A stretch of 64,000 bases of DNA from the NCBI RefSeq assembly GCF_016026235.1, contig NZ_CP065613.1; one strand, given 5' to 3'. Of this stretch, positions 21,799 to 44,379 are shown one piece after another (position 1 is the first letter of the stretch; each line of letters begins with the position of its first letter). Source of the stretch: Escherichia coli. GTDB taxonomy: Bacteria > Pseudomonadota > Gammaproteobacteria > Enterobacterales > Enterobacteriaceae. The notes under the pieces were generated by a model, which saw only the letters and a list, made by a program, of their open reading frames with translations, did no database searches and had not been told where the DNA came from. The position numbers were made by a program, and so were the translations under genes.

Positions 21799-22016
21799 TT
21801 ATGTTGGCGTTTTCTATTCAGTATAGAAGTCGGAGCGGCTGGGCGAGATGCGGAAGTTCTGGAATGTTTCTTTTTTTGATGATGGTGACTGAAGCAAATT
21901 GGCTACATTTTGCAATGTGACCAGTTGCGTCATAGTTGGCTGGCGGCGAAGAATTTTGACGATTGCGGCATGCAGAAAAAAACGGGTTCAGCTTCAGTTG
22001 ATTAAATGAGGAGTGA

Positions 22017-23698: not shown

Positions 23699-23758
23699 GA
23701 GTAATCCCCGCATATCCGGTTGTCAGGTCAGGATGGTAAGGCACCTGCTTTACACTTT

Positions 23759-23796
23759 CGCCCGCGGTCAGTGATGGCTGCGGGCGATTTCGTTTT
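23759..23796 (+). terminator. Stem-loop plus T-rich tract: 3' terminator of the hok copy 1 transcript, displaced by the IS
   Basis: GCCCGCGG / CTGCGGGC stem followed by ATTTCGTTTT. Confidence 0.45.
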
Positions 23797-23823
23797 AAGA
23801 GCAATGATGAGTTTTGCCGACAG

Positions 23824-24310: not shown

Positions 24311-24940
24311 TTAATCGTGTTGGCACAGAGTTATGACTATTTTTTCTTTTATCTGCCAGTGCACAGCAAACATCTCATTCTCACGATGAATGATGACCTG
24401 CTGTTTATTCCAGCTAATTATCTGATAGTCCAGAAAACCTGCATCAGTTTGGATCTCACTTGCCTTAAATGCGCTCTCTTTGGCGGAAAATGCCAGTGTC
24501 AGCGCCAGAGAAAAGGCTAAACCGCAGTCTGCGAGTCGCTCGTGTTCTGCTGGTGTAATAATGTTGTCTGCCAATTCGGTCGCTGTTTGCGCAGAAAAAA
24601 TTTCTTCGATATCAACGCCAATCGGTTGACGGGAAACCACGGCCAATGCCGTAGCCCCGCAGTGGCTAATACTGCCGTATACCTCCGCAGGCCACACCGG
24701 TTGGCGTAGCTCGCCGATTGCGGGCACACATTTATAGCCATATTCCCGCAAGGCATAAACAGCAGCGATCCGTCCGGCTAAATGCTCTGTTTTACGTTTA
24801 CGTCCAGCGTGTTGCAGTTGTGCGTAGTGCGGCAGCCAGAGTAAATCCTGCTCACAAAAATTCGCCGGATCGAACTCAACAAAATGCAGCGTATGTCCGG
24901 CAAAGGGGAGGGAGGTATGCGTAGTTTTCATATCGACCAT
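24311..24940 (-). CDS. entD: 4'-phosphopantetheinyl transferase EntD
   Basis: 209-aa reading from MVDMKTTHTSLPF...; the 256-aa ORF in the track extends upstream into the REP element. Confidence 0.85.
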   Translation of the reverse strand: MVDMKTTHTSLPFAGHTLHFVEFDPANFCEQDLLWLPHYAQLQHAGRKRKTEHLAGRIAAVYALREYGYKCVPAIGELRQPVWPAEVYGSISHCGATALAVVSRQPIGVDIEEIFSAQTATELADNIITPAEHERLADCGLAFSLALTLAFSAKESAFKASEIQTDAGFLDYQIISWNKQQVIIHRENEMFAVHWQIKEKIVITLCQHD

Positions 24941-24967
24941 ATCCGAGACTGATGACAAACGCAAAAC

Positions 24968-25067
24968 TGCCTGATGCGCTACGCTTATCAGGCCTACATG
25001 GTCCTGCAATATATTGAATTGGCAAGATTTTTGTAGGCCGGATAAGGCGTTCACGCCGCATCCGGCA
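24968..25067. repeat. BIME: two inverted REP elements, between fepA and entD
   Basis: TGCCTGATGCGCTACGCTTATCAGGCCTAC and TGTAGGCCGGATAAGGCGTTCACGCCGCATCCGGCA; same architecture as the BIME at 19031-19116. Confidence 0.6.
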
Positions 25068-25105
25068 TGAACGACGCGCACTTTGTCAACAATCTGACGT
25101 TAGCA

Positions 25106-27346
25106 TCAGAAGTGAGTGTTTACGCTCATATACCACGTACGTCCCGGTTCGTTATAGGTATACGCCCCGGCACCGGCGATATAGTTGGCCCCTGCCAAAT
25201 CGCCCGTGGTCTGGGCATTACCCGCACGCCACAAACGTTTGTCGAACAGATTGTCCACGCCGCCGGTCAGACTGACATTCTTCGTCACATCCCACGTCGC
25301 GCTCAGCCCAACAATGCTGTAAGGACTAATTTCTTTGGTTTCCGGTCCAACCGCTGGCTGACCTTTATAGTTGTACTTCTTCGGCTGCTGCTTACCGTAC
25401 CAGGTGAAGGTCGTTTGCATCGACAAATCTTCTCGTGCCTGCCAGCTCAGCGTTGAGTTCAACGTATACTCCGGGATGATCGACAAACGGTCGCCCGTGG
25501 TTTTGTTTTCACTCTTCAGCATATAAGTGATGTTATTAGTCCACATCACCGTTTCGCTAACCGGTACGTTTAACGATCCTTCCAGACCTTCAACCACCGC
25601 TTTCGGCACGTTATCCCACTGATAGAGATCGGTGCCGACTGCGTTTTGCCCTACAGCCACATAGCCCGCTTCAATCTTATTGCGATAATCGTTACGGAAC
25701 CAGGTGACGCCCGCCAGCCAGCCGTCGCGTTTGAACTCCAGACCAATCTCCTTGTTGATGCTGGTTTCTGCTTTCAGGTCATCGTTACCTTGCAGATAGC
25801 AGCCGCCCGTGCTGGCATAGCAGCCCTGGCCTTTACTGTAGAGAATGTAGTTCGGGTTAGTCTGGTACAGGCTCGGCGCTTTATAAGCACGGGCAATGCC
25901 CATTTTCAGCGTGAAGTCATCGCCTAAACCTTGCGATATGTTCAGCGCCGGGCTCCAGTTATTGCCGACAATGCTGTGATGATCGAAACGCAGCCCCGGC
26001 GTTACGATGGTGCTGTCAGTCAGCTCCATGTTGTTTTCGGCAAATAGCGAGAAAATTTCTGCTTTTGAATACGGGCTACGGTCGGTGGCACTCACACCAT
26101 CAATAGCGCCGCCGGTGTTCGTCCCGGTCAGAGCCTGGGTATTGGAACTCAAGTCCTTCATCCGCTGCTGATTCCACTCCGTACCCAGCGTCAGCGTCTG
26201 GTTAACGAGGAAATCAATCGGCAGGTTAACTTCACTGTGCAGCATCACGTCATCAAGATCGATATCGACGAAATCCTGTGTCGCTTTTTCGTTAAATTTC
26301 CCTTCGGTACCGCCCGCCAGACCTTCCGGAATACGCGAGTTACGGGTGTGTTCGTACTGCACCCAGTTGCTGGTGGTCACGCCGTTATCCCAGCCACCGT
26401 TCCAGGTCAGCGAGTAGTTCTGGCGATACAGGCGGTTGGTTTCATCGCCATATTTCGAGCGAGTGTAAGCGTCAGAGTTGGTGTTCTGGGTATCGCCTGC
26501 ATACAGGTTACCCTGGCGGCTGTAACCCGCTTCCAGTTCGAGTGATTGCAGAGGCGCAAAGTCCCAGCGCACCACGCCGTTAATATCTTTATTGATCACC
26601 CCTTCGCGCCCGGCTGGTAACGTCGTGGCATACGTTCCGGCACGCGCGGACTGATGGCCCTGGTTGATATCCCACGCGTCAGCCTGAGTTTTGTCGAGGT
26701 TGCCATACAAGCGGAAGCTGAATTCGTCGCCCAGCGGACCGGTCAGGCTAAAGTTAGTGCGTTTGGTGGCACCTTCCTCTTTATGTTCTGGCGCATTGAA
26801 ATATGCGTCCCAGGAGCCGTGCCACTCGCCGCTGCCTTTTTTGGTAATGATGTTAACCACGCCGCCCGCCGCGCCGTTGCCATAACGCGCAGCTGCCGGA
26901 CCACGCAGAACTTCAATACGTTCAATCATTTCAGGTGGCACCCAGGAGGTATCACCACGGGTATCGCGCTCGCCACGCCAGCCCTGACGCACCGAGTTAC
27001 GGCTGCTTACCGGCTTGCCGTCAATCAAAATCAGCGTGTTTTCCGGACCCATACCGCGAATATCAATCTGTCGGTTATTCCCTCGCTGACCACTGGTGGA
27101 GTTACCGGTCAGGTTAACGCCTGGCATGGTACGGATGATCTCCGACACATCGCGGGCAACGGGGTTTTTGCGGATTTCATCTGCGGTGATGGTCGAAACG
27201 CCAGGCGCCTGTAAGTTCTGCTCGGCGGCGGTAACGACAATAGTATCGTCATGTGAAACAGGAGTATCGGTCGGCTCTTGTGCCTGCGCTACCCCATAAA
27301 TCCCCAGATTGACCAACAAGGCCAGGGAATGAATCTTCTTGTTCAT
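25106..27346 (-). CDS. fepA: TonB-dependent ferric enterobactin outer-membrane receptor FepA
   Basis: 746-aa reading from MNKKIHSLALLVNLGIYGVAQA (signal peptide), with TonB-box region and C-terminal aromatic residue; the track ORF extends 20 codons upstream. Confidence 0.95.
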   Translation of the reverse strand: MNKKIHSLALLVNLGIYGVAQAQEPTDTPVSHDDTIVVTAAEQNLQAPGVSTITADEIRKNPVARDVSEIIRTMPGVNLTGNSTSGQRGNNRQIDIRGMGPENTLILIDGKPVSSRNSVRQGWRGERDTRGDTSWVPPEMIERIEVLRGPAAARYGNGAAGGVVNIITKKGSGEWHGSWDAYFNAPEHKEEGATKRTNFSLTGPLGDEFSFRLYGNLDKTQADAWDINQGHQSARAGTYATTLPAGREGVINKDINGVVRWDFAPLQSLELEAGYSRQGNLYAGDTQNTNSDAYTRSKYGDETNRLYRQNYSLTWNGGWDNGVTTSNWVQYEHTRNSRIPEGLAGGTEGKFNEKATQDFVDIDLDDVMLHSEVNLPIDFLVNQTLTLGTEWNQQRMKDLSSNTQALTGTNTGGAIDGVSATDRSPYSKAEIFSLFAENNMELTDSTIVTPGLRFDHHSIVGNNWSPALNISQGLGDDFTLKMGIARAYKAPSLYQTNPNYILYSKGQGCYASTGGCYLQGNDDLKAETSINKEIGLEFKRDGWLAGVTWFRNDYRNKIEAGYVAVGQNAVGTDLYQWDNVPKAVVEGLEGSLNVPVSETVMWTNNITYMLKSENKTTGDRLSIIPEYTLNSTLSWQAREDLSMQTTFTWYGKQQPKKYNYKGQPAVGPETKEISPYSIVGLSATWDVTKNVSLTGGVDNLFDKRLWRAGNAQTTGDLAGANYIAGAGAYTYNEPGRTWYMSVNTHF

Positions 27347-27504
27347 TGTTTTATTCCTGCATTTTTGCCACGAATTGCAACTGTCGGGCATGGTCGTCAT
27401 CAACACGACGCATCCCGCTACCGCGAAAACCTTTGATCCTGAAAGACACGCAGTGCAGTTGGTTAATTAATGTCCGCGCTTCCCACGGCGCACCATTACG
27501 CTAT

Positions 27505-27545
27505 TGCAAATGCAAATAGTTATCAATAATATTATCAATATATTT
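27505..27545. promoter_or_regulatory. Fur box(es) in the divergent fepA / fes promoter region
   Basis: ATTGCAAATGCAAATAGTTATCAATAATATTATCAATAT contains overlapping GATAAT-like hexamer repeats. Confidence 0.55.
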
Positions 27546-27588
27546 CTGCAATCAATGAAAAATTGCACAGTAAACATGGGGTTATGGT

Positions 27589-28791
27589 GTGACGGCGTTA
27601 AAAGTAGGAAGTGAGAGCTGGTGGCAGTCGAAACATGGCCCGGAATGGCAGCGTCTGAATGACGAAATGTTTGAGGTCACTTTCTGGTGGCGTGATCCCC
27701 AAGGTTCTGAAGAATACTCGACGATAAAGCGCGTATGGATCTACATCACTGGTGTGACCGATCATCATCAGAACAGCCAGCCCCAGTCGATGCAGCGAAT
27801 TGCAGGTACTGATGTCTGGCAGTGGACGACACAACTCAATGCCAACTGGCGCGGCAGCTACTGCTTTATTCCCACCGAACGCGATGACATTTTTTCTGCA
27901 CCATCCCCCGATCGCCTCGAATTACGTGAAGGCTGGCGAAAACTATTACCCCAGGCAATAGCCGATCCGCTGAATCCACAAAGCTGGAAAGGCGGGCGAG
28001 GGCACGCTGTTTCTGCACTCGAAATGCCGCAAGCGCCTCTGCAACCGGGATGGGATTGTCCGCAAGCGCCAGAAATACCAGCCAAAGAAATTATCTGGAA
28101 AAGTGAACGGTTGAAAAATTCACGTCGTGTATGGATTTTTACCACCGGCGATGTAACAGCAGAAGAACGCCCGCTGGCAGTTTTGCTCGATGGCGAATTT
28201 TGGGCGCAAAGTATGCCCGTCTGGCCTGTGCTGACTTCGCTGACCCATCGTCAGCAACTTCCTCCCGCCGTGTATGTGTTGATCGACGCTATCGACACCA
28301 CGCACCGCGCCCACGAACTGCCGTGTAATGCGGATTTCTGGCTGGCAGTACAGCAAGAGTTATTACCCCTGGTGAAAGCTATTGCCCCTTTTAGCGATCG
28401 CGCCGATCGCACCGTGGTCGCCGGGCAGAGTTTTGGTGGGCTGTCCGCGCTGTATGCCGGACTGCACTGGCCTGAACGCTTTGGCTGTGTATTAAGCCAG
28501 TCAGGATCGTACTGGTGGCCGCATCGGGGCGGGCAGCAAGAGGGCGTGTTACTTGAAAAGCTAAAAGCTGGTGAAGTTAGCGCCGAAGGTCTACGCATTG
28601 TGCTGGAAGCGGGTATTCGCGAGCCGATGATCATGCGGGCCAATCAGGCGCTGTATGCGCAATTACACCCTATAAAAGAATCCATTTTCTGGCGTCAGGT
28701 TGACGGCGGACATGATGCGCTTTGTTGGCGCGGTGGCTTGATGCAGGGGTTAATCGACCTCTGGCAACCACTTTTCCATGACAGGAGTTGA
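27589..28791 (+). CDS. fes: Ferric enterobactin esterase Fes
   Basis: 400-aa ORF from a GTG start, with an esterase region containing GQSFGG. Confidence 0.9.
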   Translation: MTALKVGSESWWQSKHGPEWQRLNDEMFEVTFWWRDPQGSEEYSTIKRVWIYITGVTDHHQNSQPQSMQRIAGTDVWQWTTQLNANWRGSYCFIPTERDDIFSAPSPDRLELREGWRKLLPQAIADPLNPQSWKGGRGHAVSALEMPQAPLQPGWDCPQAPEIPAKEIIWKSERLKNSRRVWIFTTGDVTAEERPLAVLLDGEFWAQSMPVWPVLTSLTHRQQLPPAVYVLIDAIDTTHRAHELPCNADFWLAVQQELLPLVKAIAPFSDRADRTVVAGQSFGGLSALYAGLHWPERFGCVLSQSGSYWWPHRGGQQEGVLLEKLKAGEVSAEGLRIVLEAGIREPMIMRANQALYAQLHPIKESIFWRQVDGGHDALCWRGGLMQGLIDLWQPLFHDRS

Positions 28792-28793
28792 AT

Positions 28794-29012
28794 ATGGCAT
28801 TCAGTAATCCCTTCGATGATCCACAGGGAGCGTTTTACATTTTGCGCAATGCGCAGGGGCAATTCAGTCTGTGGCCGCAACAATGCGCCTTACCGGCAGG
28901 CTGGGACATTGTGTGTCAGCCGCAGTCACAAGAGTCCTGCCAGCAGTGGCTTGAAGCCCACTGGCGTACTCTGACACCGGCGAATTTCACCCAGTTGCAG
29001 GAGGCACAATGA
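28794..29012 (+). CDS. ybdZ: MbtH-like protein YbdZ (NRPS partner of EntF)
   Basis: 72-aa reading MAFSNPFDDPQGAFYILRNAQGQFSLWP... with the conserved MbtH Trp residues; its stop overlaps the entF start (ATGA). Confidence 0.85.
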   Translation: MAFSNPFDDPQGAFYILRNAQGQFSLWPQQCALPAGWDIVCQPQSQESCQQWLEAHWRTLTPANFTQLQEAQ

Positions 29013-32000
29013 GCCAGCATTTACCTTTGGTCGCCGCACAGCCCGGCATCTGGATGGCAGAAAAACTGTCGGATTTACCCTCCGCCTGGAGCGTGGCGCA
29101 TTACGTTGAGTTAACCGGAGAGGTTGATGCGCCATTACTGGCCCGCGCGGTGGTTGCCGGATTAGCGCAAGCAGATACGCTGCGGATGCGTTTTACGGAA
29201 GATAACGGCGAAGTCTGGCAGTGGGTCGATGATGCGCTGACGTTCGAACTGCCAGAAATTATCGACCTGCGAACCAATATTGATCCGCACGGTACTGCGC
29301 AGGCATTAATGCAGGCGGATTTGCAACAAGATTTGCGCGTCGATAGCGGTAAACCACTGGTCTTTCACCAGCTGATACAGGTGGCAGATAACCGCTGGTA
29401 CTGGTATCAGCGTTATCACCATTTACTGGTCGATGGCTTCAGTTTTCCGGCCATTACCCGCCAGATCGCCAACATTTACTGCGCATTGCTGCGTGGCGAA
29501 CCAACGCCTGCTTCGCCGTTTACGCCTTTCGCTGATGTAGTGGAAGAGTACCAGCAATACCGCGAAAGCGAAGCCTGGCAGCGTGATGCGGCATTCTGGG
29601 TGGAACAGCGTCGCCAACTGCCACCGCCCGCGTCACTTTCTCCGGCACCTTTACCGGGGCGTAGCGCCTCGGCAGATATTCTGCGCCTGAAACTGGAATT
29701 TACCGACGGGGAATTCCGCCAGTTGGCTGCGCAACTTTCAGGTGTGCAGCGTACCGATTTAGCCCTTGCGCTGGCAGCCTTGTGGCTGGGGCGATTGTGC
29801 AATCGCATGGACTACGCCGCCGGATTTATCTTTATGCGTCGACTGGGCTCGGCGGCGCTGACGGCTACCGGACCCGTGCTCAACGTTTTACCGTTGGGTA
29901 TTCACATTGCGGCGCAAGAAACGCTGCCGGAACTGGCAACCCGACTGGCAGCACAACTGAAAAAAATGCGTCGCCATCAACGTTACGATGCCGAACAAAT
30001 TGTCCGTGACAGTGGGCGAGCGGCAGGTGATGAACCGCTGTTTGGTCCGGTACTCAATATCAAGGTATTTGATTACCAACTGGATATTCCTGATGTTCAG
30101 GCGCAAACCCATACCCTGGCAACTGGGCCGGTTAATGACCTTGAACTGGCCCTGTTCCCGGATGAACACGGTGATTTGAGTATTGAGATCCTCGCCAATA
30201 AACAGCGTTACGCTGAGCCAACGTTAATCCAGCATGCTGAACGCCTGAAAATGCTGATCGCCCAATTCGCCGCGGATCCGGCGCTGTTGTGCGGCGATGT
30301 CGATATTATGCTGCCAGGTGAGTATGCGCAGCTGGCGCAGATCAACGCCACTCAGGTTGAGATTCCAGAAACCACGCTTAGCGCGCTGGTGGCAGAACAA
30401 GCGGAAAAAACACCGGATGCTCCGGCGCTGGCAGATGCGCGTTACCAGTTCAGCTATCGGGAAATGCGTGAGCAGGTGGTGGCGCTGGCGAATCTGCTGC
30501 GTGAGCGCGGCGTTAAACCAGGGGACAGCGTGGCGGTGGCACTACCGCGCTCGGTCTTTTTGACCCTGGCACTCCATGCGATAGTTGAAGCTGGCGCGGC
30601 CTGGCTACCGCTGGATACCGGCTATCCGGACGATCGCCTGAAAATGATGCTGGAAGATGCGCGTCCGTCGCTGTTAATCACCACCGACGATCAACTGCCG
30701 CGCTTTGTTGATGTTCCAGATTTAACCAGCCTTTGCTATAACGCCCCGCTTACACCGCAGGGCAGTGCGCCGCTGCAACTTTCACAACCGCATCACACGG
30801 CTTATATCATCTTTACCTCTGGCTCCACCGGCAGGCCGAAAGGGGTAATGGTCGGGCAGACGGCTATCGTCAACCGCCTGTTGTGGATGCAAAATCATTA
30901 TCCGCTCACAGGCGAAGATGTCGTTGCCCAAAAAACGCCGTGCAGTTTTGATGTCTCGGTGTGGGAGTTTTTCTGGCCGTTTATTGCCGGGGCTAAACTA
31001 GTGATGGCTGAACCGGAAGCGCACCGCGACCCGCTTGCTATGCAGCAATTCTTTGCCGAATATGGCGTAACGACCACGCACTTTGTGCCGTCGATGCTGG
31101 CGGCATTTGTTGCATTGCTGACTCCGCAAACCGCTCGCCAGAATTGCGCGACGTTGAAACAGGTTTTCTGTAGTGGTGAGGCCTTACCGGCTGATTTATG
31201 CCGCGAATGGCAACAGTTAACGGGCGCGCCGTTGCATAATCTATATGGCCCGACGGAAGCGGCGGTAGATGTGAGCTGGTATCCGGCTTTTGGCGAGGAA
31301 CTGGCACAGGTGCGCGGCAGCAGTGTGCCGATTGGTTATCCGGTGTGGAATACGGGCTTGCGCATTCTCGATGCGATGATGCATCCGGTGCCGCCGGGTG
31401 TGGCGGGAGATCTCTATCTCACCGGTATTCAACTGGCGCAGGGGTATCTTGGACGACCCGATCTGACCGCCAGCCGCTTTATTGCCGATCCTTTTGTCCC
31501 TGGTGAACGGATGTACCGTACCGGAGACGTTGCCCGCTGGCTGGATAACGGCGCGGTGGAGTACCTCGGGCGCAGTGACGATCAGCTAAAAATTCGCGGG
31601 CAGCGTATTGAACTGGGCGAAATCGATCGCGTGATGCAGGCGCTGCCGGATGTCGAACAAGCCGTTACCCACGCCTGTGTGATTAACCAGGCGGCAGCCA
31701 CCGGTGGTGATGCGCGTCAGTTGGTGGGCTATCTGGTGTCGCAATCAGGTCTGCCGTTGGATACCAGCGTATTACAGGCACAGCTTCGCGAAACATTGCC
31801 GCCGCATATGGTGCCGGTCGTTCTGCTGCAACTTCCACAGTTACCTCTTAGCGCCAACGGCAAGCTGGATCGCAAAGCCTTACCGTTGCCTGAACTTAAG
31901 GCACAAACGCCGGGGCGTGCGCCGAAAGCGGGCAGTGAAACGATTATCGCTGCGGCATTCGCGTCGTTGCTGGGTTGTGACGTGCAGGATGCCGATGCTG

Positions 32001-32890
32001 ATTTCTTCGCGCTTGGCGGTCATTCGCTACTGGCAATGAAACTGGCAGCGCAGTTAAGTCGACAGTTTGCTCGTCAGGTGACGCCGGGGCAGGTGATGGT
32101 CGCGTCAACCGTCGCCAAACTGGCAACGATTATTGATGGTGAAGAAGACAGCTCCCGGCGCATGGGATTCGAAACCATTCTGCCGTTGCGTGAAGGTAAT
32201 GGCCCGACGCTGTTTTGTTTCCATCCGGCATCCGGTTTTGCCTGGCAGTTTAGCGTGCTCTCGCGTTATCTCGATCCACTATGGTCGATTATCGGCATTC
32301 AGTCGCCGCGCCCTCATGGCCCCATGCAGACAGCGACGAACCTGGATGAAGTCTGCGAAGCGCATCTGGCAACGTTACTTGAACAACAACCGCACGGCCC
32401 TTATTACCTGCTGGGGTATTCCCTTGGCGGTACGCTGGCGCAGGGCATTGCGGCGCGACTACGTGCCCGTGGCGAACAGGTGGCATTTCTTGGCTTGCTG
32501 GATACCTGGCCGCCAGAAACGCAAAACTGGCAGGAAAAAGAAGCTAATGGTCTGGACCCGGAAGTGCTGGCGGAGATTAACCGCGAGCGCGAGGCCTTCC
32601 TGGCGGCACAGCAGGGAAGTACTTCAACGGAGTTGTTTACCACCATTGAAGGCAACTACGCTGATGCTGTGCGCCTGCTGACGACTGCTCATAGCGTACC
32701 GTTTGATGGTAAAGCGACGCTGTTTGTTGCTGAACGTACGCTTCAGGAAGGTATGAGCCCCGAACGCGCCTGGTCGCCGTGGATTGCGGAGCTGGATATC
32801 TATCGTCAGGATTGTGCGCATGTGGATATTATCTCTCCAGGGGCATTTGAAAAAATTGGGCCGATTATTCGCGCAACGCTAAACAGATAA
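29009..32890 (+). CDS. entF: Enterobactin non-ribosomal peptide synthetase EntF (C-A-T-TE)
   Basis: 1293-aa ORF with HHLLVDG (condensation), FTSGSTGRPKG (adenylation), FFALGGHSL (carrier) and GYSLGG (thioesterase) motifs. Confidence 0.95.
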   Translation: MSQHLPLVAAQPGIWMAEKLSDLPSAWSVAHYVELTGEVDAPLLARAVVAGLAQADTLRMRFTEDNGEVWQWVDDALTFELPEIIDLRTNIDPHGTAQALMQADLQQDLRVDSGKPLVFHQLIQVADNRWYWYQRYHHLLVDGFSFPAITRQIANIYCALLRGEPTPASPFTPFADVVEEYQQYRESEAWQRDAAFWVEQRRQLPPPASLSPAPLPGRSASADILRLKLEFTDGEFRQLAAQLSGVQRTDLALALAALWLGRLCNRMDYAAGFIFMRRLGSAALTATGPVLNVLPLGIHIAAQETLPELATRLAAQLKKMRRHQRYDAEQIVRDSGRAAGDEPLFGPVLNIKVFDYQLDIPDVQAQTHTLATGPVNDLELALFPDEHGDLSIEILANKQRYAEPTLIQHAERLKMLIAQFAADPALLCGDVDIMLPGEYAQLAQINATQVEIPETTLSALVAEQAEKTPDAPALADARYQFSYREMREQVVALANLLRERGVKPGDSVAVALPRSVFLTLALHAIVEAGAAWLPLDTGYPDDRLKMMLEDARPSLLITTDDQLPRFVDVPDLTSLCYNAPLTPQGSAPLQLSQPHHTAYIIFTSGSTGRPKGVMVGQTAIVNRLLWMQNHYPLTGEDVVAQKTPCSFDVSVWEFFWPFIAGAKLVMAEPEAHRDPLAMQQFFAEYGVTTTHFVPSMLAAFVALLTPQTARQNCATLKQVFCSGEALPADLCREWQQLTGAPLHNLYGPTEAAVDVSWYPAFGEELAQVRGSSVPIGYPVWNTGLRILDAMMHPVPPGVAGDLYLTGIQLAQGYLGRPDLTASRFIADPFVPGERMYRTGDVARWLDNGAVEYLGRSDDQLKIRGQRIELGEIDRVMQALPDVEQAVTHACVINQAAATGGDARQLVGYLVSQSGLPLDTSVLQAQLRETLPPHMVPVVLLQLPQLPLSANGKLDRKALPLPELKAQTPGRAPKAGSETIIAAAFASLLGCDVQDADADFFALGGHSLLAMKLAAQLSRQFARQVTPGQVMVASTVAKLATIIDGEEDSSRRMGFETILPLREGNGPTLFCFHPASGFAWQFSVLSRYLDPLWSIIGIQSPRPHGPMQTATNLDEVCEAHLATLLEQQPHGPYYLLGYSLGGTLAQGIAARLRARGEQVAFLGLLDTWPPETQNWQEKEANGLDPEVLAEINREREAFLAAQQGSTSTELFTTIEGNYADAVRLLTTAHSVPFDGKATLFVAERTLQEGMSPERAWSPWIAELDIYRQDCAHVDIISPGAFEKIGPIIRATLNR

Positions 32891-32905
32891 ATTAACATTA
32901 TCTAT

Positions 32906-32950
32906 AAACCCATAATTGCAGGAAATAATTATGGGTTTATCATTTATTTA
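32906..32950 (+). terminator. Rho-independent terminator downstream of entF
   Basis: AAACCCATAATT / AATTATGGGTTT stem followed by a T-rich tract. Confidence 0.6.
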
Positions 32951-33105
32951 ATTTATAAGTTTGCTGGTTATTTTTCTTAAATAGAGTGAATGTTGCATTC
33001 AGTGGAATGAATTTACAAACTTCAGCTTCGGATAATTCTCACCAACTGGTAAAGTGAGCGCCGTGGAGATTTCCCCCTATTGGACTCATTTTCAGGTTAT
33101 ACCCC

Positions 33106-35051: not shown

Positions 35052-36040
35052 TTTTTGCGAGACTCCTGAATTAACAAGACGATAAGGTAAATACCGCCGA
35101 GGCTGACGGTAACGACGCCAACCGGAAGTTGATATGGCATAAACAGTTGCTGAGCGCAAAGATCGGCCGCCAGCAGTAACAACGCCCCGCACAGCGCCGC
35201 CTGGGTTAGCCCCCAGCGAGCGGTGCCGCTAATGCGTCGGGCAATGTGCGGCGCGACTAAAGCAATAAAGGAAATCGGCCCGGCAAGCGCTGTTGCCGCA
35301 GCGGTAAGCACCACTGCAACCAGCATCATTAACAGACGCGAACGTTCGACGCTGACGCCCAGCGCACACGCGGTATCATCGCCCATTTCCAGCAAGCGCA
35401 TCCGGCGTACCAGTAAGGCGGCGGCAATTAGCATCAATATAATGATGGGTGCGGAAGGCGAGGTTTTTGCCCACGTCAGGCCGTTGAGCGATCCGGCATT
35501 CCACAAACCTGCTGTTAGCGCCGTTTCTAAAGACGCTTTCAGCAACAGCCAGGTATTAAAGGCCACCAGCATGGCGCGAACGCCGATACCGATAATAATC
35601 AACCGAAAGGTGTCGATACCGTTACGCCAGGCGAGCAGCCAGACCAACAGCGAAGTGATAATGCCGCCCACCATTGCTGCCAGCGCGATAGCCGTCAGGT
35701 CCTGACCAAACAGCACCATCGCCACCAGCACGCCGCTCCACGCCCCGGTGTTAAAACCCATTACGTCAGGGCTGCCGAGCGGGTTACGCATCAGCGACTG
35801 AAAAATCGCGCCACTGACGCCCAGTGCTGCGCCAATCAACAGCGCCATCAGCACGCGTGGTAAACGCCATTCGGTGACCACCATCGTCATACTGCGCGGC
35901 GCATCGCCCATCAGCGCGGCGAATACCTGCGAGATTTCCAGCGTGACGGCACCGCTGCGTAATCCCCAGATACCTGCAACCACACAGGCGGAAACCAGCA
36001 GCAAACAGGTGATGAGTAATCGGCGAGAGACGTAAATCAT
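35048..36040 (-). CDS. fepG: Ferric enterobactin ABC transporter permease FepG
   Basis: 330-aa polytopic ORF; its stop overlaps the fepC start (ATGA). Confidence 0.9.
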   Translation of the reverse strand: MIYVSRRLLITCLLLVSACVVAGIWGLRSGAVTLEISQVFAALMGDAPRSMTMVVTEWRLPRVLMALLIGAALGVSGAIFQSLMRNPLGSPDVMGFNTGAWSGVLVAMVLFGQDLTAIALAAMVGGIITSLLVWLLAWRNGIDTFRLIIIGIGVRAMLVAFNTWLLLKASLETALTAGLWNAGSLNGLTWAKTSPSAPIIILMLIAAALLVRRMRLLEMGDDTACALGVSVERSRLLMMLVAVVLTAAATALAGPISFIALVAPHIARRISGTARWGLTQAALCGALLLLAADLCAQQLFMPYQLPVGVVTVSLGGIYLIVLLIQESRKK

Positions 36041-37041
36041 GCACCACCTCGCGTTTTACGTCGCACGAGGAAGATCAGCACCGGTGCACCAATAAACGCA
36101 CTGACCACAGAAACGCGCAGTTCACCGGGCACAATCACCCGCCCGATGATATCGGCAAACAGCAGCAGGGCAGGGGTAGCAAGTAGCGTGACGGGCAGCG
36201 ACCAGCGATGATCGGCACCCACCAGCCAACGCGCCATATGCGGCATCATCAGGCCAATAAAGGCAATCGGGCCAACTACTGCCGTCGCACTACCACAAAG
36301 CACGGTAATCGCCAGCAGACCAATCAACTGTGTGCGCGCCACGCGACTGCCCAGCGCCGTCGCGGTGTCACTGCCGAGGCTCAAACTGTTCAGCGCGCGA
36401 CTCAGTAATAGCGCAGTTGCTCCGGCGATCAGCACCGGGATCAGCACCACCTTTAAGGTATGTAGATTGCGAATATCCAGCGAACCGGCTTGCCAGAAAC
36501 GCAGTTGATCGTAGACGTCAGGATTAAGCAGGGCTATGCCGCTGGTCAGCCCTTCCAGCACCGCCGCCAGCGCCACGCCCGCCAGGGTTAAACGCACCGG
36601 ACTTAACTGCCCGCCGCCCTGGCTGCCGGTAAAGGCAACAATCAACGAGGCCACCAGCGCCCCGGCGAAGGCCATCGCCAGTTGTTCCTGTGCGGAAGAG
36701 TAACCAAACAGCGCCGCACCCAGCACAATGGCAAAGCTGGCTCCGGCGTTCACGCCAAGCAAGCCGGGGTCGGCAAGTGGGTTTCGGGTGAGGGTTTGCA
36801 TTAACGCCCCGGCAAGGCCAAGCGCGCCGCCTGCCAGTAAACCGGCAAGGGTGCGCGGCAGTCGCGCGTCAAGCACGATGGTGCAGTCGGCGCTCTGGCA
36901 GGTGCCGGAGAGCGCCTCCAGCACTACGGAAGCGGGGAGTGATTTTGCCCCAATGAGCAGGCTTAATGCCGTCGCGATAATCAGTAATAACAGCAATCCG
37001 GGCACGGCAATGGCGCGTGTCACGGCAACAGAACCAGACAT
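36037..37041 (-). CDS. fepD: Ferric enterobactin ABC transporter permease FepD
   Basis: 334-aa reading from MSGSVAVTRA...; its stop overlaps the fepG start (ATGA). Confidence 0.9.
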   Translation of the reverse strand: MSGSVAVTRAIAVPGLLLLLIIATALSLLIGAKSLPASVVLEALSGTCQSADCTIVLDARLPRTLAGLLAGGALGLAGALMQTLTRNPLADPGLLGVNAGASFAIVLGAALFGYSSAQEQLAMAFAGALVASLIVAFTGSQGGGQLSPVRLTLAGVALAAVLEGLTSGIALLNPDVYDQLRFWQAGSLDIRNLHTLKVVLIPVLIAGATALLLSRALNSLSLGSDTATALGSRVARTQLIGLLAITVLCGSATAVVGPIAFIGLMMPHMARWLVGADHRWSLPVTLLATPALLLFADIIGRVIVPGELRVSVVSAFIGAPVLIFLVRRKTRGGA

Positions 37042-37053
37042 ACGAACTTCCAT

Positions 37054-37081
37054 GATAATGAAATTAATTATCGTTATCGAT
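37054..37081. promoter_or_regulatory. Fur box in the divergent fepD / entS promoter region
   Basis: GATAATGAAATTAATTATCGTTATCGAT, a close match to the GATAATGATAATCATTATC consensus. Confidence 0.65.
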
Positions 37082-37151
37082 CTTATTTGGATATGTTAGC
37101 ATGTGCAGCCTAAGAATAGGTATTTAAAATATTTGATGGCAAGGCATTGTA

Positions 37152-38402: not shown

Positions 38403-38405
38403 TGC

Positions 38406-39362
38406 TTAAAACAGCGCCTTAAGCCGTTCCAGCACTTGCATGGCGCTGTAGTAATCCAGACGGAACGTCTCGGTTCCCAGCGCATAAACCTGCTTGTTTT
38501 GTACTGCGGGCAGGTGCGCGAGCAGTGGATTGGCATAAATCGCATCGGCATCTTTCTGATCACCAGCGAACAGGAATAGCGATTCACCGTTTAACCCAGC
38601 AGCCAGATTTTCCCCACCAAGCTGAATGATGTCATGGCGTTTACCCTGGCTTTGGCTGGCATTTAACCCTGCGGGTAACTTCGCCAGCGTAAAGCCGAGT
38701 TGTTCCAGCATCTGCCCTTGTGCTGATTCCGGCGTCCAGAGATTGGCACTGTGTGCAGCGGCGGTATAGACAATGGCAGTGACCGGCTGCGGCGGTAATT
38801 TGATTTGCTCTTTCGCCGCGGCCAGTTGCTTATCAAACTGCGCAATCCGCTCTGCCGCTTGTTTCTCATGCCCGGTAATTTCGCCAAGTTGCGTTAACAG
38901 CGCCTGCCAGCTTTTGTCGTCGTAATTGATGATTAATGTCGGGGCGATGGTGGAAAGCTGATCATACAGTGCCAGCGCCGAATCGCCGCCGGTTGCGCTA
39001 ATTAAAATCAGATCCGGCATTTGCGCGGCAACGGCTTCGGCGCTCGGTTCGCCGATATAGAGCCGTTGCAGTTTGCGTTCTTTCGCCACCTTGCTCCACT
39101 GGCGTAAAAAGCCCTGGTCATCCGCGACGCGGTTATTCGGCGTGGTCGCGCCGCTGGCGATCACCGGAACATCAATCGCCAGCAGTGAGCCGGTCAGGGT
39201 GACGCTGGTGGAAACAATACGCTGCGGCTGGCTTTCCAGGGTATGAATGCCACGGCTGTCAGTAATCTGACGCGGCCAGTCGGCGGCCTGAACTGCGGCT
39301 ATTCCTGAAAGCAAAAGTCCTGTTAATAGAAGGGCGTTGCGGTAGAGCGGGGCGAGTCTCAC
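38406..39362 (-). CDS. fepB: Periplasmic ferric enterobactin-binding protein FepB
   Basis: 318-aa ORF with a signal peptide; convergent with entS. Confidence 0.9.
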
Positions 39363-39502
39363 AAATCAGCTTCCTGTTATTAATGAAGTTAATGCTTCTC
39401 ATTTTCATTGTAACCACAACCAGATGCAACCCCGAGTTGCAGATTGCGTTACCTCAAGAGTTGACATAGTGCGCGTTTGCTTTTAGGTTAGCGACCGAAA
39501 AT

Positions 39503-39523
39503 ATAAATGATAATCATTATTAA
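39503..39523. promoter_or_regulatory. Fur box in the divergent fepB / entC promoter region
   Basis: ATAAATGATAATCATTATTAA, a near-consensus Fur box. Confidence 0.7.
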
Positions 39524-39550
39524 AGCCTTTATCATTTTGTGGAGGATGAT

Positions 39551-40726
39551 ATGGATACGTCACTGGCTGAGGAAGTACAGCAGACCATGGCAACACTTGC
39601 GCCCAATCGCTTTTTCTTTATGTCGCCGTACCGCAGTTTTACGACGTCAGGATGTTTCGCCCGCTTCGATGAACCGGCTGTGAACGGGGATTCGCCCGAC
39701 AGTCCCTTCCAGCAAAAACTCGCCGCGCTGTTTGCCGATGCCAAAGCGCAGGGCATCAAAAATCCGGTGATGGTTGGGGCGATTCCCTTCGATCCACGTC
39801 AGCCTTCGTCGCTGTATATTCCCGAATCCTGGCAGTCGTTCTCCCGTCAGGAAAAACAAGCTTCCGCACGCCGTTTCACCCGCAGCCAGTTGCTGAATGT
39901 GGTGGAACGTCAGGCAATTCCGGAACAAACCACGTTTGAACAGATGGTTGCCCGCGCCGCCGCACTTACCGCCACGCCGCAGGTCGACAAAGTGGTGTTG
40001 TCACGGTTGATTGATATCACCACTGACGCCGCCATTGATAGTGGCGTATTGCTGGAACGGTTGATTGCGCAAAACCCAGTTAGTTACAACTTCCATGTGC
40101 CGTTGGCAGATGGTGGCGTTCTGCTGGGGGCCAGCCCGGAACTGCTGCTACGTAAAGACGGCGAGCGTTTTAGCTCCATTCCGTTAGCCGGTTCCGCGCG
40201 TCGTCAGCCGGATGAAGTGCTCGATCGCGAAGCGGGTAATCGTCTGCTGGCGTCAGAAAAAGATCGCCATGAACATGAACTGGTGACTCAGGCGATGAAA
40301 GAGGTACTGCGCGAACGCAGTAGTGAGTTACACGTTCCCTCCTCTCCACAATTGATTACCACGCCGACGCTGTGGCATCTCGCAACTCCCTTTGAAGGTA
40401 AAGCGAATTCGCAAGAAAACGCACTGACTCTGGCCTGTCTGCTGCATCCGACCCCCGCGCTGAGCGGTTTCCCGCATCAGGCCGCGACCCAGGTTATTGC
40501 TGAACTGGAACCGTTCGACCGCGAACTGTTTGGCGGCATTGTGGGTTGGTGTGACAGCGAAGGTAACGGCGAATGGGTGGTGACCATCCGTTGCGCGAAG
40601 CTGCGGGAAAATCAGGTGCGCCTGTTTGCCGGAGCGGGGATTGTGCCTGCGTCGTCACCGTTGGGTGAGTGGCGCGAAACAGGCGTCAAACTTTCTACCA
40701 TGTTGAACGTTTTTGGATTGCATTAA
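39551..40726 (+). CDS. entC: Isochorismate synthase EntC
   Basis: 391-aa reading from [11 protein letters not shown]... (the track ORF starts four codons upstream). Confidence 0.9.
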
Positions 40727-40735
40727 GGAGCGAGG

Positions 40736-42346
40736 ATGAGCATTCCATTCACCCGCTGGCCGGAAGAGTTTGCCCGTCGCTATCGGGAAAAAGGCTACTG
40801 GCAGGATTTGCCGCTGACCGACATTCTGACTCGCCACGCTGCGAGTGACAGCATCGCGGTTATCGACGGCGAGCGACAGTTGAGTTATCGGGAGCTGAAT
40901 CAGGCGGCGGATAACCTCGCGTGTAGTTTACGCCGTCAGGGCATTAAACCTGGTGAAACCGCGCTGGTACAACTGGGTAACGTTGCTGAATTGTATATTA
41001 CCTTTTTCGCGCTGCTGAAACTGGGCGTTGCGCCGGTGCTGGCGTTGTTCAGCCATCAGCGTAGTGAACTGAACGCCTATGCCAGCCAGATTGAACCCGC
41101 ATTGCTGATTGCCGATCGCCAACATGCGCTGTTTAGCGGGGATGATTTCCTCAACACATTTGTTGCAGAGCATTCTTCCATTCGCGTGGTGCAGCTACTC
41201 AACGACAGCGGTGAGCATAACTTGCAGGATGCGATTAACCATCCGGCAGACGGTTTTACTGCTACGCCGTCACCTGCTGATGAAGTGGCCTATTTCCAGC
41301 TTTCCGGCGGCACCACCGGTACACCAAAGCTGATCCCGCGCACTCATAACGACTACTACTACAGCGTGCGTCGTAGCGTCGAGATTTGTCAGTTCACACA
41401 ACAGACACGCTACCTGTGCGCGATCCCGGCGGCTCATAACTACGCTATGAGTTCGCCAGGATCGCTGGGCGTCTTTCTTGCCGGAGGAACGGTTGTTCTG
41501 GCGGCCGATCCCAGCGCCACGCTTTGCTTCCCATTGATTGAAAAACATCAGATTAACGTTACCGCGCTGGTGCCGCCGGCAGTCAGCCTGTGGTTGCAGG
41601 CGCTGACCGAAGGCGAAAGCCGGGCGCAGCTTGCCTCGCTGAAACTGTTACAGGTCGGTGGCGCACGTCTTTCTGCCACGCTTGCGGCGCGTATTCCCGC
41701 TGAGATTGGTTGCCAGTTGCAGCAGGTGTTTGGTATGGCGGAAGGGCTGGTGAACTATACCCGTCTTGATGATAGCGCGGAGAAAATTATCCATACCCAG
41801 GGTTACCCAATGTGTCCGGATGACGAAGTATGGGTTGCCGATGCCGAAGGAAATCCACTGCCGCAAGGGGAAGTCGGACGACTGATGACGCGCGGGCCGT
41901 ATACCTTCCGTGGCTATTACAAAAGCCCGCAGCACAATGCCAGCGCCTTTGATGCCAACGGTTTTTACTGTTCCGGCGATCTGATCTCTATTGATCCAGA
42001 GGGTTACATCACCGTGCAGGGGCGCGAGAAAGATCAGATCAACCGTGGCGGCGAGAAGATCGCTGTCGAAGAGATCGAAAACCTGTTGCTGCGCCATCCG
42101 GCGGTGATCTACGCCGCACTGGTCAGTATGGAAGATGAGCTGATGGGCGAAAAAAGCTGTGCTTATCTGGTGGTAAAAGAGCCGCTGCGCGCGGTGCAGG
42201 TGCGTCGTTTCCTGCGTGAACAGGGTATTGCCGAATTTAAATTACCGGATCGCGTGGAGTGTGTGGATTCACTTCCGCTGACGGCGGTCGGGAAAGTCGA
42301 TAAAAAACAATTACGTCAGTGGCTGGCGTCACGCGCGTCAGCCTGA
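40736..42346 (+). CDS. entE: 2,3-dihydroxybenzoate-AMP ligase EntE
   Basis: 536-aa ORF with adenylation motifs (SGGTTGTPK). Confidence 0.95.
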
Positions 42347-42359
42347 AGGAGAGAACACG

Positions 42360-43217
42360 ATGGCTATTCCAAAATTACAGGCTTACGCACTGCCGGAGTC
42401 TCACGATATCCCTAAGAATAAAGTCGACTGGGCCTTTGAACCGCAACGTGCCGCGTTGTTAATCCATGATATGCAGGACTATTTTGTCAGCTTCTGGGGT
42501 GAGAACTGCCCGATGATGGCGCAGGTGATCGCGAATATTGCTGCGCTGCGCGACTACTGCAAACAGCACAATATCCCGGTTTATTACACCGCCCAGCCGA
42601 AAGAGCAAAGCGATGAAGATAGGGCGCTGTTGAATGATATGTGGGGGCCGGGCCTGACCCGTTCGCCGGAACAGCAAAAGGTGGTGGATCGCCTGACGCC
42701 AGATGCCGACGACACGGTGCTGGTGAAGTGGCGCTACAGCGCGTTTCATCGTTCTCCGCTGGAGCAAATGCTCAAAGAGAGTGGACGTAACCAGCTGATT
42801 ATTACCGGGGTATATGCCCACATTGGCTGTATGACCACCGCAACCGACGCATTTATGCGCGATATTAAACCGTTTATGGTGGCGGATGCGCTGGCCGATT
42901 TCAGCCGTGACGAGCATTTGATGTCGCTGAAATATGTGGCCGGACGTTCTGGCCGGGTGGTGATGACCGAAGAATTACTGCCAGCACCTATCCCCGCCAG
43001 CAAAGCGGCGCTGCGTGAGGTGATCCTGCCGTTGCTGGACGAGTCCGATGAACCGTTCGATGACGACAACCTGATCGACTACGGTCTGGATTCGGTGCGC
43101 ATGATGGCGCTGGCGGCGCGCTGGCGCAAAGTGCATGGCGATATCGACTTTGTCATGCTGGCGAAAAACCCGACCATCGACGCCTGGTGGAAGCTACTCT
43201 CCCGCGAGGTGAAATAA
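42360..43217 (+). CDS. entB: Isochorismatase / aryl carrier protein EntB
   Basis: 285-aa ORF with an isochorismatase domain and a C-terminal carrier domain (GLDSVRMM). Confidence 0.95.
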   Translation: MAIPKLQAYALPESHDIPKNKVDWAFEPQRAALLIHDMQDYFVSFWGENCPMMAQVIANIAALRDYCKQHNIPVYYTAQPKEQSDEDRALLNDMWGPGLTRSPEQQKVVDRLTPDADDTVLVKWRYSAFHRSPLEQMLKESGRNQLIITGVYAHIGCMTTATDAFMRDIKPFMVADALADFSRDEHLMSLKYVAGRSGRVVMTEELLPAPIPASKAALREVILPLLDESDEPFDDDNLIDYGLDSVRMMALAARWRKVHGDIDFVMLAKNPTIDAWWKLLSREVK

Positions 43218-43963
43218 TGGATTTCAGCGGTAAAAATGTCTGGGTAACCGGCGCAGGTAAAGGTATCGGCTACGCCACGGCGCTGGCGTTTGTTGAGGCG
43301 GGAGCGAAAGTTACAGGTTTTGATCAAGCGTTCACTCAGGAGCAATATCCCTTTGCGACCGAAGTGATGGATGTTGCCGACGCTGCGCAGGTGGTGCAAG
43401 TGTGTCAGCGACTGTTAGCTGAAACGGAGCGACTGGACGCGCTGGTCAATGCGGCGGGAATTTTACGCATGGGCGCGACAGACCAACTGAGCAAAGAGGA
43501 CTGGCAGCAGACTTTTGCGGTTAACGTCGGCGGTGCGTTTAACCTGTTTCAGCAAACCATGAACCAGTTTCGCCGTCAGCGGGGCGGGGCGATTGTCACT
43601 GTGGCGTCCGACGCCGCACACACGCCGCGTATTGGTATGAGTGCTTATGGCGCATCGAAAGCGGCGCTGAAAAGCCTGGCGTTGAGCGTCGGGCTGGAAC
43701 TGGCGGGTAGCGGCGTGCGCTGTAATGTGGTTTCGCCTGGCTCCACCGACACCGATATGCAACGCACGCTGTGGGTGAGCGATGACGCCGAAGAACAGCG
43801 TATTCGCGGCTTTGGCGAGCAGTTTAAACTCGGCATTCCGCTGGGGAAAATCGCCCGTCCACAAGAGATCGCCAACACGATTTTGTTCCTCGCCTCTGAC
43901 CTCGCCAGCCATATCACCCTACAGGATATTGTGGTCGATGGCGGCTCAACGCTGGGGGCATAA
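43217..43963 (+). CDS. entA: 2,3-dihydro-2,3-dihydroxybenzoate dehydrogenase EntA (SDR)
   Basis: 248-aa reading from [18 protein letters not shown]; the start overlaps the entB stop by 1 nt. Confidence 0.9.
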
Positions 43964-43965
43964 GC

Positions 43966-44379
43966 ATGATCTGGAAACGCCATTTTACGCTCGACGAACT
44001 GAACTCTACCAGCGATAACACAATGGTAGCGCATCTGGGAATTGTGTATACCCGTCTGGGCGATGATGTGCTGGAAGCCGAAATGCCGGTTGATACCCGT
44101 ACTCATCAGCCGTTTGGCCTGCTGCATGGCGGTGCGTCGGCGGCGCTGGCTGAAACGCTGGGATCGATGGCCGGATTTATGATGACCCGCGACGGGCAGT
44201 GTGTGGTGGGCACGGAACTTAACGCCACACATCATCGCCCGGTGTCTGAAGGCAAGGTACGCGGCGTCTGCCAGCCGCTGCATCTTGGGCGGCAAAATCA
44301 GAGCTGGGAAATCGTCGTTTTCGATGAACAGGGGCGGCGTTGCTGCACTTGTCGGCTGGGTACGGCAGTTTTGGGATGA
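43966..44379 (+). CDS. entH: Hotdog-fold proofreading thioesterase EntH (YbdB)
   Basis: 137-aa ORF immediately after entA. Confidence 0.85.

Follow-up and report, generated by a model that had tools for sequence, protein, structure and literature searches.

An intact enterobactin cluster with conserved Fur operators in an Escherichia coli chromosome, and two points at which its wiring may differ between lineages

The enterobactin pathway is established enzymology: EntC, EntB and EntA convert chorismate to 2,3-dihydroxybenzoate (DHB), EntE charges the aryl carrier domain of EntB with DHB, and EntF, primed by EntD and helped by the MbtH-like protein YbdZ, carries out three DHB-serine condensations followed by cyclisation. 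EntH serves in proofreading and EntS exports the siderophore; the ferric complex is re-imported by FepA, FepB and FepDGC and hydrolysed by Fes. The operators through which Fur acts in E. coli consist of a 19-bp box that occurs in clusters of overlapping sites (Chen et al. 2007, PMC2189734), and coordinates of the DNase I Fur footprints in K-12 are available (PMC2189734 Table 3). Iron- and fur-dependent repression of the genes flanking these operators has been reported in nine E. coli strains (PMC10164565). The ent/fep/fes cluster and its control by Fur, as we describe them here, are already textbook biology and nothing new, since few systems in bacterial genetics have been studied so well. The gain is a practical one: annotation of the region is secure, one claim about a gene junction is corrected, and the Fur sites are placed at exact coordinates.

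We analyzed a 64-kb stretch of DNA, referred to as the window. Positions 24311 and 44379, which are the ends of the entD and entH stop codons, enclose what is almost certainly the chromosomal enterobactin system of E. coli, organized as in K-12 and controlled by Fur. Its features are as follows.

24311..24931, minus strand: entD, phosphopantetheinyl transferase, 206 aa (NCBIfam equivalog NF007604, 431 bits; 97.6% to K-12 EntD)
24932..25105, no strand: fepA-entD spacer with REP-type palindromes (GCCGGATGCGGCGTGAACGCCTTATCCGGCCTACA and related; Rfam ES036 at 24990-25031)
25106..27346, minus strand: fepA, TonB-dependent ferric enterobactin receptor, 746 aa (NCBIfam FepA family NF010048, 1281 bits; 99.3% to K-12)
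27497..27544, no strand: fepA/fes Fur operator (equals K-12 DNase I footprint 611868-611915, PMC2189734 Table 3)
27589..28791, plus strand: fes, enterobactin esterase, 400 aa, GTG start (NCBIfam equivalog NF007758, 709 bits; 98.5% to K-12)
28794..29012, plus strand: ybdZ, MbtH-like EntF partner, 72 aa (Pfam MbtH, 76.5 bits; PDB 5ja1_B, E 3e-46)
29009..32890, plus strand: entF, serine-activating NRPS, 1293 aa (NCBIfam equivalog NF007605, 2803 bits)
32904..32950, plus strand: terminator-like hairpin 3' of entF, 15-bp stem and T-rich tail (-19.6 kcal/mol, z -4.05)
33106..34239, plus strand: fepE (NCBIfam equivalog NF007699, 624 bits; PDB 9ski, 3b8m)
34236..35051, minus strand: fepC, ABC transporter ATPase (NCBIfam NF007606, 611 bits)
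35048..36040, minus strand: fepG, ABC transporter permease (NCBIfam NF007759, 647 bits)
36037..37041, minus strand: fepD, ABC transporter permease (NCBIfam NF007760, 628 bits)
37023..37091, no strand: fepD/entS Fur operator (equals K-12 footprint 621394-621462, PMC2189734)
37152..38402, plus strand: entS, MFS-family enterobactin exporter (NCBIfam NF007792, 715 bits)
38406..39362, minus strand: fepB, periplasmic binding protein, GTG start (NCBIfam NF008200, 515 bits)
39390..39412, no strand: fepB-proximal Fur operator (matrix match; 23 retained bases of the 31-nt K-12 fepB footprint)
39497..39545, no strand: entC-proximal Fur operator (equals K-12 footprint 624054-624102)
39551..44379, plus strand: entC-entE-entB-entA-entH operon, for DHB synthesis, activation, aryl carrier and proofreading thioesterase (NCBIfam equivalogs for EntC, EntE, EntA and EntH; Pfam for EntB)

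Sixteen reading frames (entD, fepA, fes, ybdZ, entF, fepE, fepC, fepG, fepD, entS, fepB, entC, entE, entB, entA and entH) are open with proper starts and stops, and no frame disruption was found in any of them. Every one of the 16 proteins is exactly as long as its K-12 counterpart and aligns with it without a gap, at 95.8-99.7% amino acid identity. Fourteen exceed the cut-offs of NCBIfam equivalog or subfamily models, including EntC (NF011591, 862 bits), EntA (NF006074, 440 bits), EntE (NF008192), EntH (NF007607) and the whole export, uptake and hydrolysis set of EntS, FepA, FepB, FepDGC and Fes (7/7). The other two contain the expected Pfam domains: at 1e-10, YbdZ had no NCBIfam match and EntB no NCBIfam equivalog, and the latter has Isochorismatase and PP-binding domains and is 99.3% identical to K-12 EntB. 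The DHB branch is present as isochorismate synthase, isochorismatase/aryl carrier and 2,3-dihydro-DHB dehydrogenase (EntC, EntB and EntA), and the assembly genes comprise the DHB-AMP ligase, the EntF NRPS, the phosphopantetheinyl transferase, the MbtH-like protein and the proofreading thioesterase. Thus, the initial annotation was right to describe all biosynthesis, export, uptake and hydrolysis genes as present and full length, and also to rate the region as well-characterised biology of low interest; the cluster is standard, intact and typical. Judging from the intact reading frames, we predict that the strain produces and uses enterobactin.

The closest described locus, K-12 MG1655 b0583-b0597, carries these 16 genes with order, orientation and protein lengths all unchanged, and shares four gene overlaps and three of four Fur footprints with the strain. 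The fepA-entD spacer matches it at 173 of 174 bases; identity falls to 93% in the entF/fepE gap. The neighborhood of entD also differs: an IS4-like element lies between two copies of hokE in the strain, whereas in K-12 IS186 follows a single hokE. In 5,411 of 5,426 complete E. coli genomes the annotated ent cluster is collinear with this one, and FDAARGOS_943 is 99.9% identical over the region.

Fur boxes had been proposed in the three bidirectional regions fepA/fes, fepD/entS and fepB/entC, together with ways of checking them that included a matrix scan and a comparison with published footprints. We built a 19-bp matrix from 15 K-12 sites, leaving out every site of the ent cluster to avoid circularity; the site centers were taken from PMC2189734 Table 4, and each mapped center was verified to be the local best match. 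The six top matches of the entire window (12.7-25.6 bits) all fall in the three divergent regions, and the next-best score anywhere in the 64 kb is 9.9 bits. Between the divergent start codons, overlapping sites are clustered with a spacing of 6 bp. The fepA/fes region has matches at 27509-27527 (center 27518, 17.8 bits) and 27521-27539 (center 27530, 9.4 bits), and fepD/entS at 37057-37075 (center 37066, 18.4 bits) and 37063-37081 (center 37072, 16.6 bits). Next to entC the centers are 39509, 39515 and 39527, at 6- and 12-bp spacing (15.1 and 25.6 bits for the first two and 9.7 bits for the third), and the fepB-proximal match lies at 39391-39409 (center 39400, 12.7 bits). After mapping, the published centers 611889, 621437 and 624072 coincide with site centers in the window. 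Of the four DNase I footprints published for K-12, three (fepA-fes, fepD-entS and entC) recur base for base, and the fourth is retained in part (23/31 nt). Overall, there is no substantial difference from the described E. coli operators (PMC2189734); only the fepB footprint deviates, at its left edge, through a repeat polymorphism considered below.

On the one hand, G+C content in the three regions is low, at 30-43%, and Fur-box-like sequences in such promoter DNA could be chance matches rather than operators; a simple consensus count does yield many 12/19 matches throughout the window, because the Fur consensus is itself AT-rich. At 112 window positions with at least 12/19, the plain 19-bp consensus count was too noisy, and the matrix was used instead. 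On the other hand, matches of at least 12 bits number six in the window versus 0.69 in dinucleotide shuffles, and when each of the three regions was shuffled with its dinucleotide content kept, no more than 3, 8 and 0 of 2,000 trials reached the real top score, so the sites score well above background. Chance would also have to place the six best matches of 64 kb in exactly the three divergent regions, reproduce footprinted K-12 operators and retain the sites in every genus examined. In a set of 80 Enterobacteriaceae species, all mapped divergent regions (60/60, 76/76 and 74/74) contain a Fur site scoring 15 bits or more, and matches of at least 10 bits number 452 in 37 kb inside these regions versus 34 in 1.45 Mb outside. 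Footprint identity, matrix ranking, shuffles and cross-genus conservation together refute a chance origin, to which we assign a practically negligible probability. The ent clusters of Salmonella, Citrobacter, Klebsiella and Enterobacter have the same core order, the same three divergent regions with Fur sites and the same fepD/fepG/fepC and entB/entA overlaps as the strain, and at the fepD/entS site most genera reach 24.0 bits, versus 18.4 bits in Escherichia.

The predicted operators are thus supported by identity to K-12 footprints, by matrix scores well clear of background and by their retention in other genera, and by analogy with the literature Fur would bind and repress there in this strain as well. 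Genes would be read outward from each of three divergent control regions. With iron present, Fe2+-Fur on the site clusters would block the promoters or sequence transcribed early on; under iron shortage Fur would leave these sites, and six transcription units would be expressed together. The fur gene lies outside the window. At fepD-entS, the sites are downstream of the predicted promoters and repression on microarrays was weak (PMC2189734); therefore, Fur may act there as a roadblock rather than by promoter occlusion. A sigma-70 consensus scan showed no enrichment in the cluster (12 promoter-like sites versus 14.2 expected), and thus the promoter positions rest on the literature; a terminator consensus scan of the cluster gave 27 sites versus 25.1 expected.

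The fepB/entC gap measures 188 bp in the strain versus 374 bp in K-12, because the window does not contain a 186-bp palindromic repeat present in the K-12 fepB leader. Consequently, the fepB-proximal Fur site is 38 bp rather than approximately 224 bp from the fepB start, and 8 of the 31 nt of the K-12 fepB footprint differ. We considered a strain-specific deletion, but this is ruled out by the distribution of the repeat, a multi-copy element found in 2,721 of 5,426 E. coli genomes, and by the median gap across genera of 187 bp; therefore, the short form is ancestral. Thus, the K-12 fepB leader, which serves as the reference for the published footprints, carries an insertion missing from the strain and from about half of E. 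coli. The element, which may resemble the "box C"/RSA class of E. coli palindromic repeats, folds strongly, separates the fepB start codon from the fepB Fur operator, and is absent from the strain and most other genera. Because it occupies this position in about half of E. coli, fepB expression may differ systematically between lineages, through leader stability, translation or the distance of a Fur roadblock. The broader proposal that lineages are wired differently, with fepB expression altered by the leader repeat and fepE insulated from iron control by a terminator, is in our view rather unlikely as a whole.

Start/stop overlaps had been claimed at fes/ybdZ/entF, fepD/fepG/fepC and entB/entA. 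The ATGA overlaps at ybdZ/entF, fepD/fepG and fepG/fepC and the TAATG overlap at entB/entA are there, but fes and ybdZ do not overlap: the fes TGA ends at 28791 and the ybdZ ATG starts at 28794, leaving a 2-nt spacer (TGA-AT-ATG; TGAATATG). Elsewhere, entA/entH are 2 nt apart, entC/entE 9 nt and entE/entB 13 nt. At the four overlaps of 4 or 1 nt, with the Shine-Dalgarno motif inside the upstream gene, translation is probably coupled, judging from the overlaps, which would fix subunit ratios. Overlaps of 4 nt and 1 nt are very common in bacterial operons and could reflect compact packing, each downstream gene being translated independently from its own ribosome-binding site. A recognizable Shine-Dalgarno motif does stand 5-10 nt before the start of every downstream gene, and independent initiation would look identical in sequence; moreover, the ybdZ/entF overlap is kept in just 46 of 65 species and the fes/ybdZ spacing varies freely. 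Against this, the overlaps at fepD/fepG (78/78 species), fepG/fepC (79/80) and entB/entA (65/68) are unchanged despite 10-25% protein divergence, which points to selection acting on the junction itself, and fixed ratios matter for FepD, FepG and FepC as subunits of a single transporter. We therefore regard independent translation as rather unlikely, and the conservation of the junctions as suggestive of dependence on upstream translation.

The initial annotation saw the Fur sites as the regulatory frame for ybdZ and fepE, which it called less understood. That description does not hold today, as both have solved structures (MbtH-like YbdZ, by Pfam, in complex with EntF in PDB 5ja1), and fepE probably lies outside the Fur frame, with a terminator hairpin in front and no Fur site in the gap. 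The hairpin 3' of entF has a G+C-containing 15-bp stem at 32904-32940 and a T-tract tail that is interrupted in the strain (CATTTATTTA) and clean in K-12 (TTTATTTGTT). An exact-match search for this hairpin in K-12 and relatives found none; at this position, however, most of 20 other entF-fepE gaps, including all those of Escherichia and Salmonella, also have a hairpin, built from other stem sequences. The stems vary yet still pair in Escherichia, Citrobacter and Salmonella, through compensatory changes (best stem per sequence, judged by inspection and not by a formal covariation test). In the proposed model, fepE would be an accessory O-antigen gene placed between entF and fepC behind a terminator, and its expression would probably be largely its own.

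The main alternative is that read-through makes fepE an ordinary member of the fes-ybdZ-entF operon under Fur control. Indeed, the operon is given as fes-ybdZ-entF-fepE with Fur and CRP as regulators (PMC4145685 Tables 2 and 3), fepE lies on the same strand 215 bp downstream, a consensus scan of the entF/fepE gap yielded no clear promoter match, and the interrupted T-tract means that termination after entF may be leaky. However, the hairpin and T-tract are kept by compensatory changes, the matrix scan found no Fur site above 4.2 bits in the gap, neither the Fur-1 nor the Fur-2 iModulon gene list includes fepE (PMC10164565), and the gene was not induced together with fes, ybdZ and entF by inactive serum (PMC4145685). 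PMC3447750 contains nothing on fepE regulation. Unlike the strain, most other genera of Enterobacteriaceae have no fepE in their ent clusters: among 65 loci with both entF and fepC mapped, it is present in 20 and absent in 45, where entF ends facing fepC. Membership by read-through is thus a serious possibility that we nevertheless lean against. If fepE is insulated by a conserved terminator, the database operon fes-ybdZ-entF-fepE would be wrong for most conditions; fepE should not be presumed to share the iron regulation of its neighbors. At the far end of fepE, its stop codon overlaps that of the convergent fepC, and the convergent entS and fepB end 3 nt apart.

The enterobactin cluster (window 24311-44379) is an already known feature and matches the annotated E. 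coli enterobactin cluster over its full length. It is 99.9% identical to that of strain FDAARGOS_943, 98.7% identical to the next best genomes and approximately 97.5% identical to K-12; of 5,426 complete E. coli genomes, 5,411 cover 80% or more of it. Gene coordinates were obtained by annotation transfer:

Genes of the enterobactin cluster (window coordinates, strand)
24311-24931, -, entD
25106-27346, -, fepA
27589-28791, +, fes
28794-29012, +, ybdZ
29009-32890, +, entF
33106-34239, +, fepE
34236-35051, -, fepC
35048-36040, -, fepG
36037-37041, -, fepD
37152-38402, +, entS
38406-39362, -, fepB
39551-40726, +, entC
40736-42346, +, entE
42360-43217, +, entB
43217-43963, +, entA
43966-44379, +, entH

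The initial annotation described these genes as present and full length, and this was borne out. All reading frames have proper start and stop codons and are uninterrupted in between; the products equal their K-12 counterparts in length and align with them without gaps (95.8% identity for YbdZ to 99.7% for EntC). Fourteen of the proteins score above the curated NCBIfam cut-off for the expected family, and EntB has both its isochorismatase and carrier domains.

Fur boxes had also been proposed in each divergent promoter region. To avoid circularity, no ent-cluster site went into our symmetric 19-bp matrix (21.8 bits of information); it was built from 15 other K-12 sites (fhuA, gpmA, fiu, efeU, ydiE, cirA, mntH, exbB, nfeF, bfd, ryhB, sodA, fecI, fecA, and fhuF); the mapped centre of each was verified as a local optimum, and leave-one-out scores ranged from 15.5 to 29.0 bits. 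The top six positions in the whole 64-kb window all fall within the three divergent regions:

Fur-matrix matches (window coordinates, region, score)
39506-39524, fepB/entC, 25.6 bits
37057-37075, fepD/entS, 18.4 bits
27509-27527, fepA/fes, 17.8 bits
37063-37081, fepD/entS, 16.6 bits
39500-39518, fepB/entC, 15.1 bits
39391-39409, fepB/entC, 12.7 bits

The seventh-ranked match, which is the best outside the cluster, reaches only 9.9 bits (58289-58307). Far from scoring below background, the sites exceed it: dinucleotide-preserving shuffles of the window gave means of 0.69 matches of at least 12 bits and 0.055 of at least 17 bits, versus 6 and 3 observed. When each of the three AT-rich divergent regions was shuffled separately, the observed maximum was reached in 3, 8, and 0 of 2,000 trials.

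For K-12, Chen et al. 2007 (PMC2189734) tabulated where Fur footprints lie and where strong Fur sites are centred. A shift of +777 brings their coordinates into register with the current K-12 record, as verified using how far the paper places the sites from the start codons of fepA and fes. Of the footprints, three recur base for base in the window: fepA-fes (27497-27544), fepD-entS (37023-37091), and entC (39497-39545). The published centres 611889, 621437, and 624072 coincide with our matrix centres at 27518, 37066, and 39515. Agreement with K-12 is only partial at the fourth, fepB, where 23 promoter-distal bases are kept (39390-39412), because the window lacks a 186-bp element present in K-12. 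A search with FepC yielded 80 loci from different Enterobacteriaceae species (L019-L098; genera include Escherichia, Citrobacter, Salmonella, Klebsiella, Enterobacter, Kosakonia, and Raoultella), in which genes were mapped by tblastn. Every delimitable region had a Fur site scoring 15 bits or more (60/60 for fepA/fes, 76/76 for fepD/entS, and 74/74 for fepB/entC). Matches of at least 10 bits numbered 452 in 37 kb of divergent regions versus 34 in the other 1.45 Mb, and several of these 34 sit in loci where mapping of the divergent regions failed. The ent and fep genes also belong to the core Fur regulon that ChIP-exo and expression data delineate for nine E. coli strains (PMC10164565).

The fepB/entC gap (39363-39550) is 188 bp long, whereas in K-12 it spans 374 bp. 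The extra 186 bp form a G+C-rich palindromic element (fold energy, -86.9 kcal/mol) that separates the fepB start from the Fur operator of that gene, with an apparent flanking TAA duplication on reading of its junctions; the breakpoint in the window lies near 39386-39390. Here, 38 bp separate the fepB GTG start from the centre of its proximal Fur site. The element is multicopy (median of 6 places per genome) and occupies the fepB/entC gap in 2,721 of the 5,426 complete E. coli genomes, the rest having the short form, as in the window. The usual gap in other genera is also short (median, 187 bp) and without the element; hence the short form is ancestral and the K-12 leader is derived.

Extensive translational coupling had been claimed through overlaps of adjacent genes. 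By sequence, four of these stand: ATGA at ybdZ/entF (4 nt in 46/65 loci), fepD/fepG (78/78), and fepG/fepC (79/80), and TAATG at entB/entA (1 nt in 65/68). The fifth does not: at the fes/ybdZ junction (GTTGAATATGG) two bases separate the fes TGA from the ybdZ ATG. This spacing varies across species; the distance is still small enough for re-initiation. Other spacers are 2 nt (entA/entH), 9 nt (entC/entE), and 13 nt (entE/entB). A Shine-Dalgarno motif lies within the upstream gene for all downstream genes and, together with the stability of the junctions across species, makes coupling plausible and probably selected for.

Two gene pairs converge: the stop codons of fepE and fepC overlap (TTAA, 34236-34239), and 3 nt separate the ends of entS and fepB (38400-38408). 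As there is no room for a terminator between them, convergent transcripts must overlap or stop inside the opposite gene. The spacing of convergent genes varies in other species.

YbdZ is an MbtH-like protein; its PDB match is a chain whose structure was determined in complex with EntF (5ja1_B, E 3e-46). MbtH-like proteins activate NRPS adenylation domains. FepE is assigned by an NCBIfam equivalog as the Wzz(fepE) co-polymerase, with PDB matches 9ski, 3b8m, and 3b8n. With these structures solved, the view of both genes as less understood no longer holds. Wzz(fepE) sets very long O-antigen chains (PMC3447750, PMC13161533). Among the 65 loci where both entF and fepC were mappable, only 20 have fepE (Escherichia, Salmonella, most Citrobacter, and a few others); the 45 that lack it mostly have entF and fepC converging, with 12-450 bp between them in 41 (most commonly 30-140 bp). 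Thus, fepE looks like an accessory passenger inserted in the cluster, outside its conserved core.

The Fur sites had been taken as the regulatory frame for both genes. For ybdZ this stands; fepE is probably not covered, or only weakly, as several observations suggest. Directly 3' of entF lies a hairpin (32904-32940; perfect 15-bp stem, -19.6 kcal/mol, z -4.05) with a T-rich tail (whole element, 32904-32950). Most fepE-bearing species have a hairpin at the same place, with compensatory changes such that the stem sequences differ and still pair (e.g., AAACCC/GGGTTT, AAAGCC/GGCTTT, AACTCC/GGAGTT, and AACCTC/GAGGTT); it is probably an intrinsic terminator parting fepE from the Fur-controlled operon. 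The matrix found no site above 4.2 bits in the entF/fepE gap, the intergenic stretch most diverged from K-12 (200/215 bases identical). Furthermore, fepE is not among the Fur iModulon gene lists (PMC10164565), and in a serum study of ExPEC, fes, ybdZ, and entF were induced and fepE was not (PMC4145685).

Just past entD (22015-24211), two hokE/sokE toxin-antitoxin copies, approximately 95% alike, flank an IS4-like element, whereas K-12 has a single hokE and then IS186 at this position. These and two RNA features are as follows:

Neighbouring features (window coordinates, strand where assigned)
419-492, +, tRNA gene (FDAARGOS_943 annotates tRNA-Arg in the corresponding stretch)
22084-22238 and 23890-24045, Rfam sok matches
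22230-22382 and 24037-24189, intact 50-aa hokE frames
~22405-23821, IS4-like element; transposase 22425-23615, -
58172-58280, -, rnk leader RNA (Rfam RF01771, 124.9 bits)

The fepA-entD spacer (24932-25105) is full of REP-type palindromes, one of which marginally matches Rfam ES036 (CssrF; 40.5 bits versus a threshold of 37.6); the match probably stems from the REP sequence and not from a genuine sRNA gene. The closest relative, FDAARGOS_943, lacks a 6.2-kb stretch, lost beside IS1, that the window retains (5149-11365); judging from flanking genes, it probably holds the start of nfrA plus nfrB, cusS, cusR, and cusC. In that strain citR is split by an IS1 that is absent from the window (51555-51562). 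The rnk leader adjoins the best Fur-matrix match outside the cluster.
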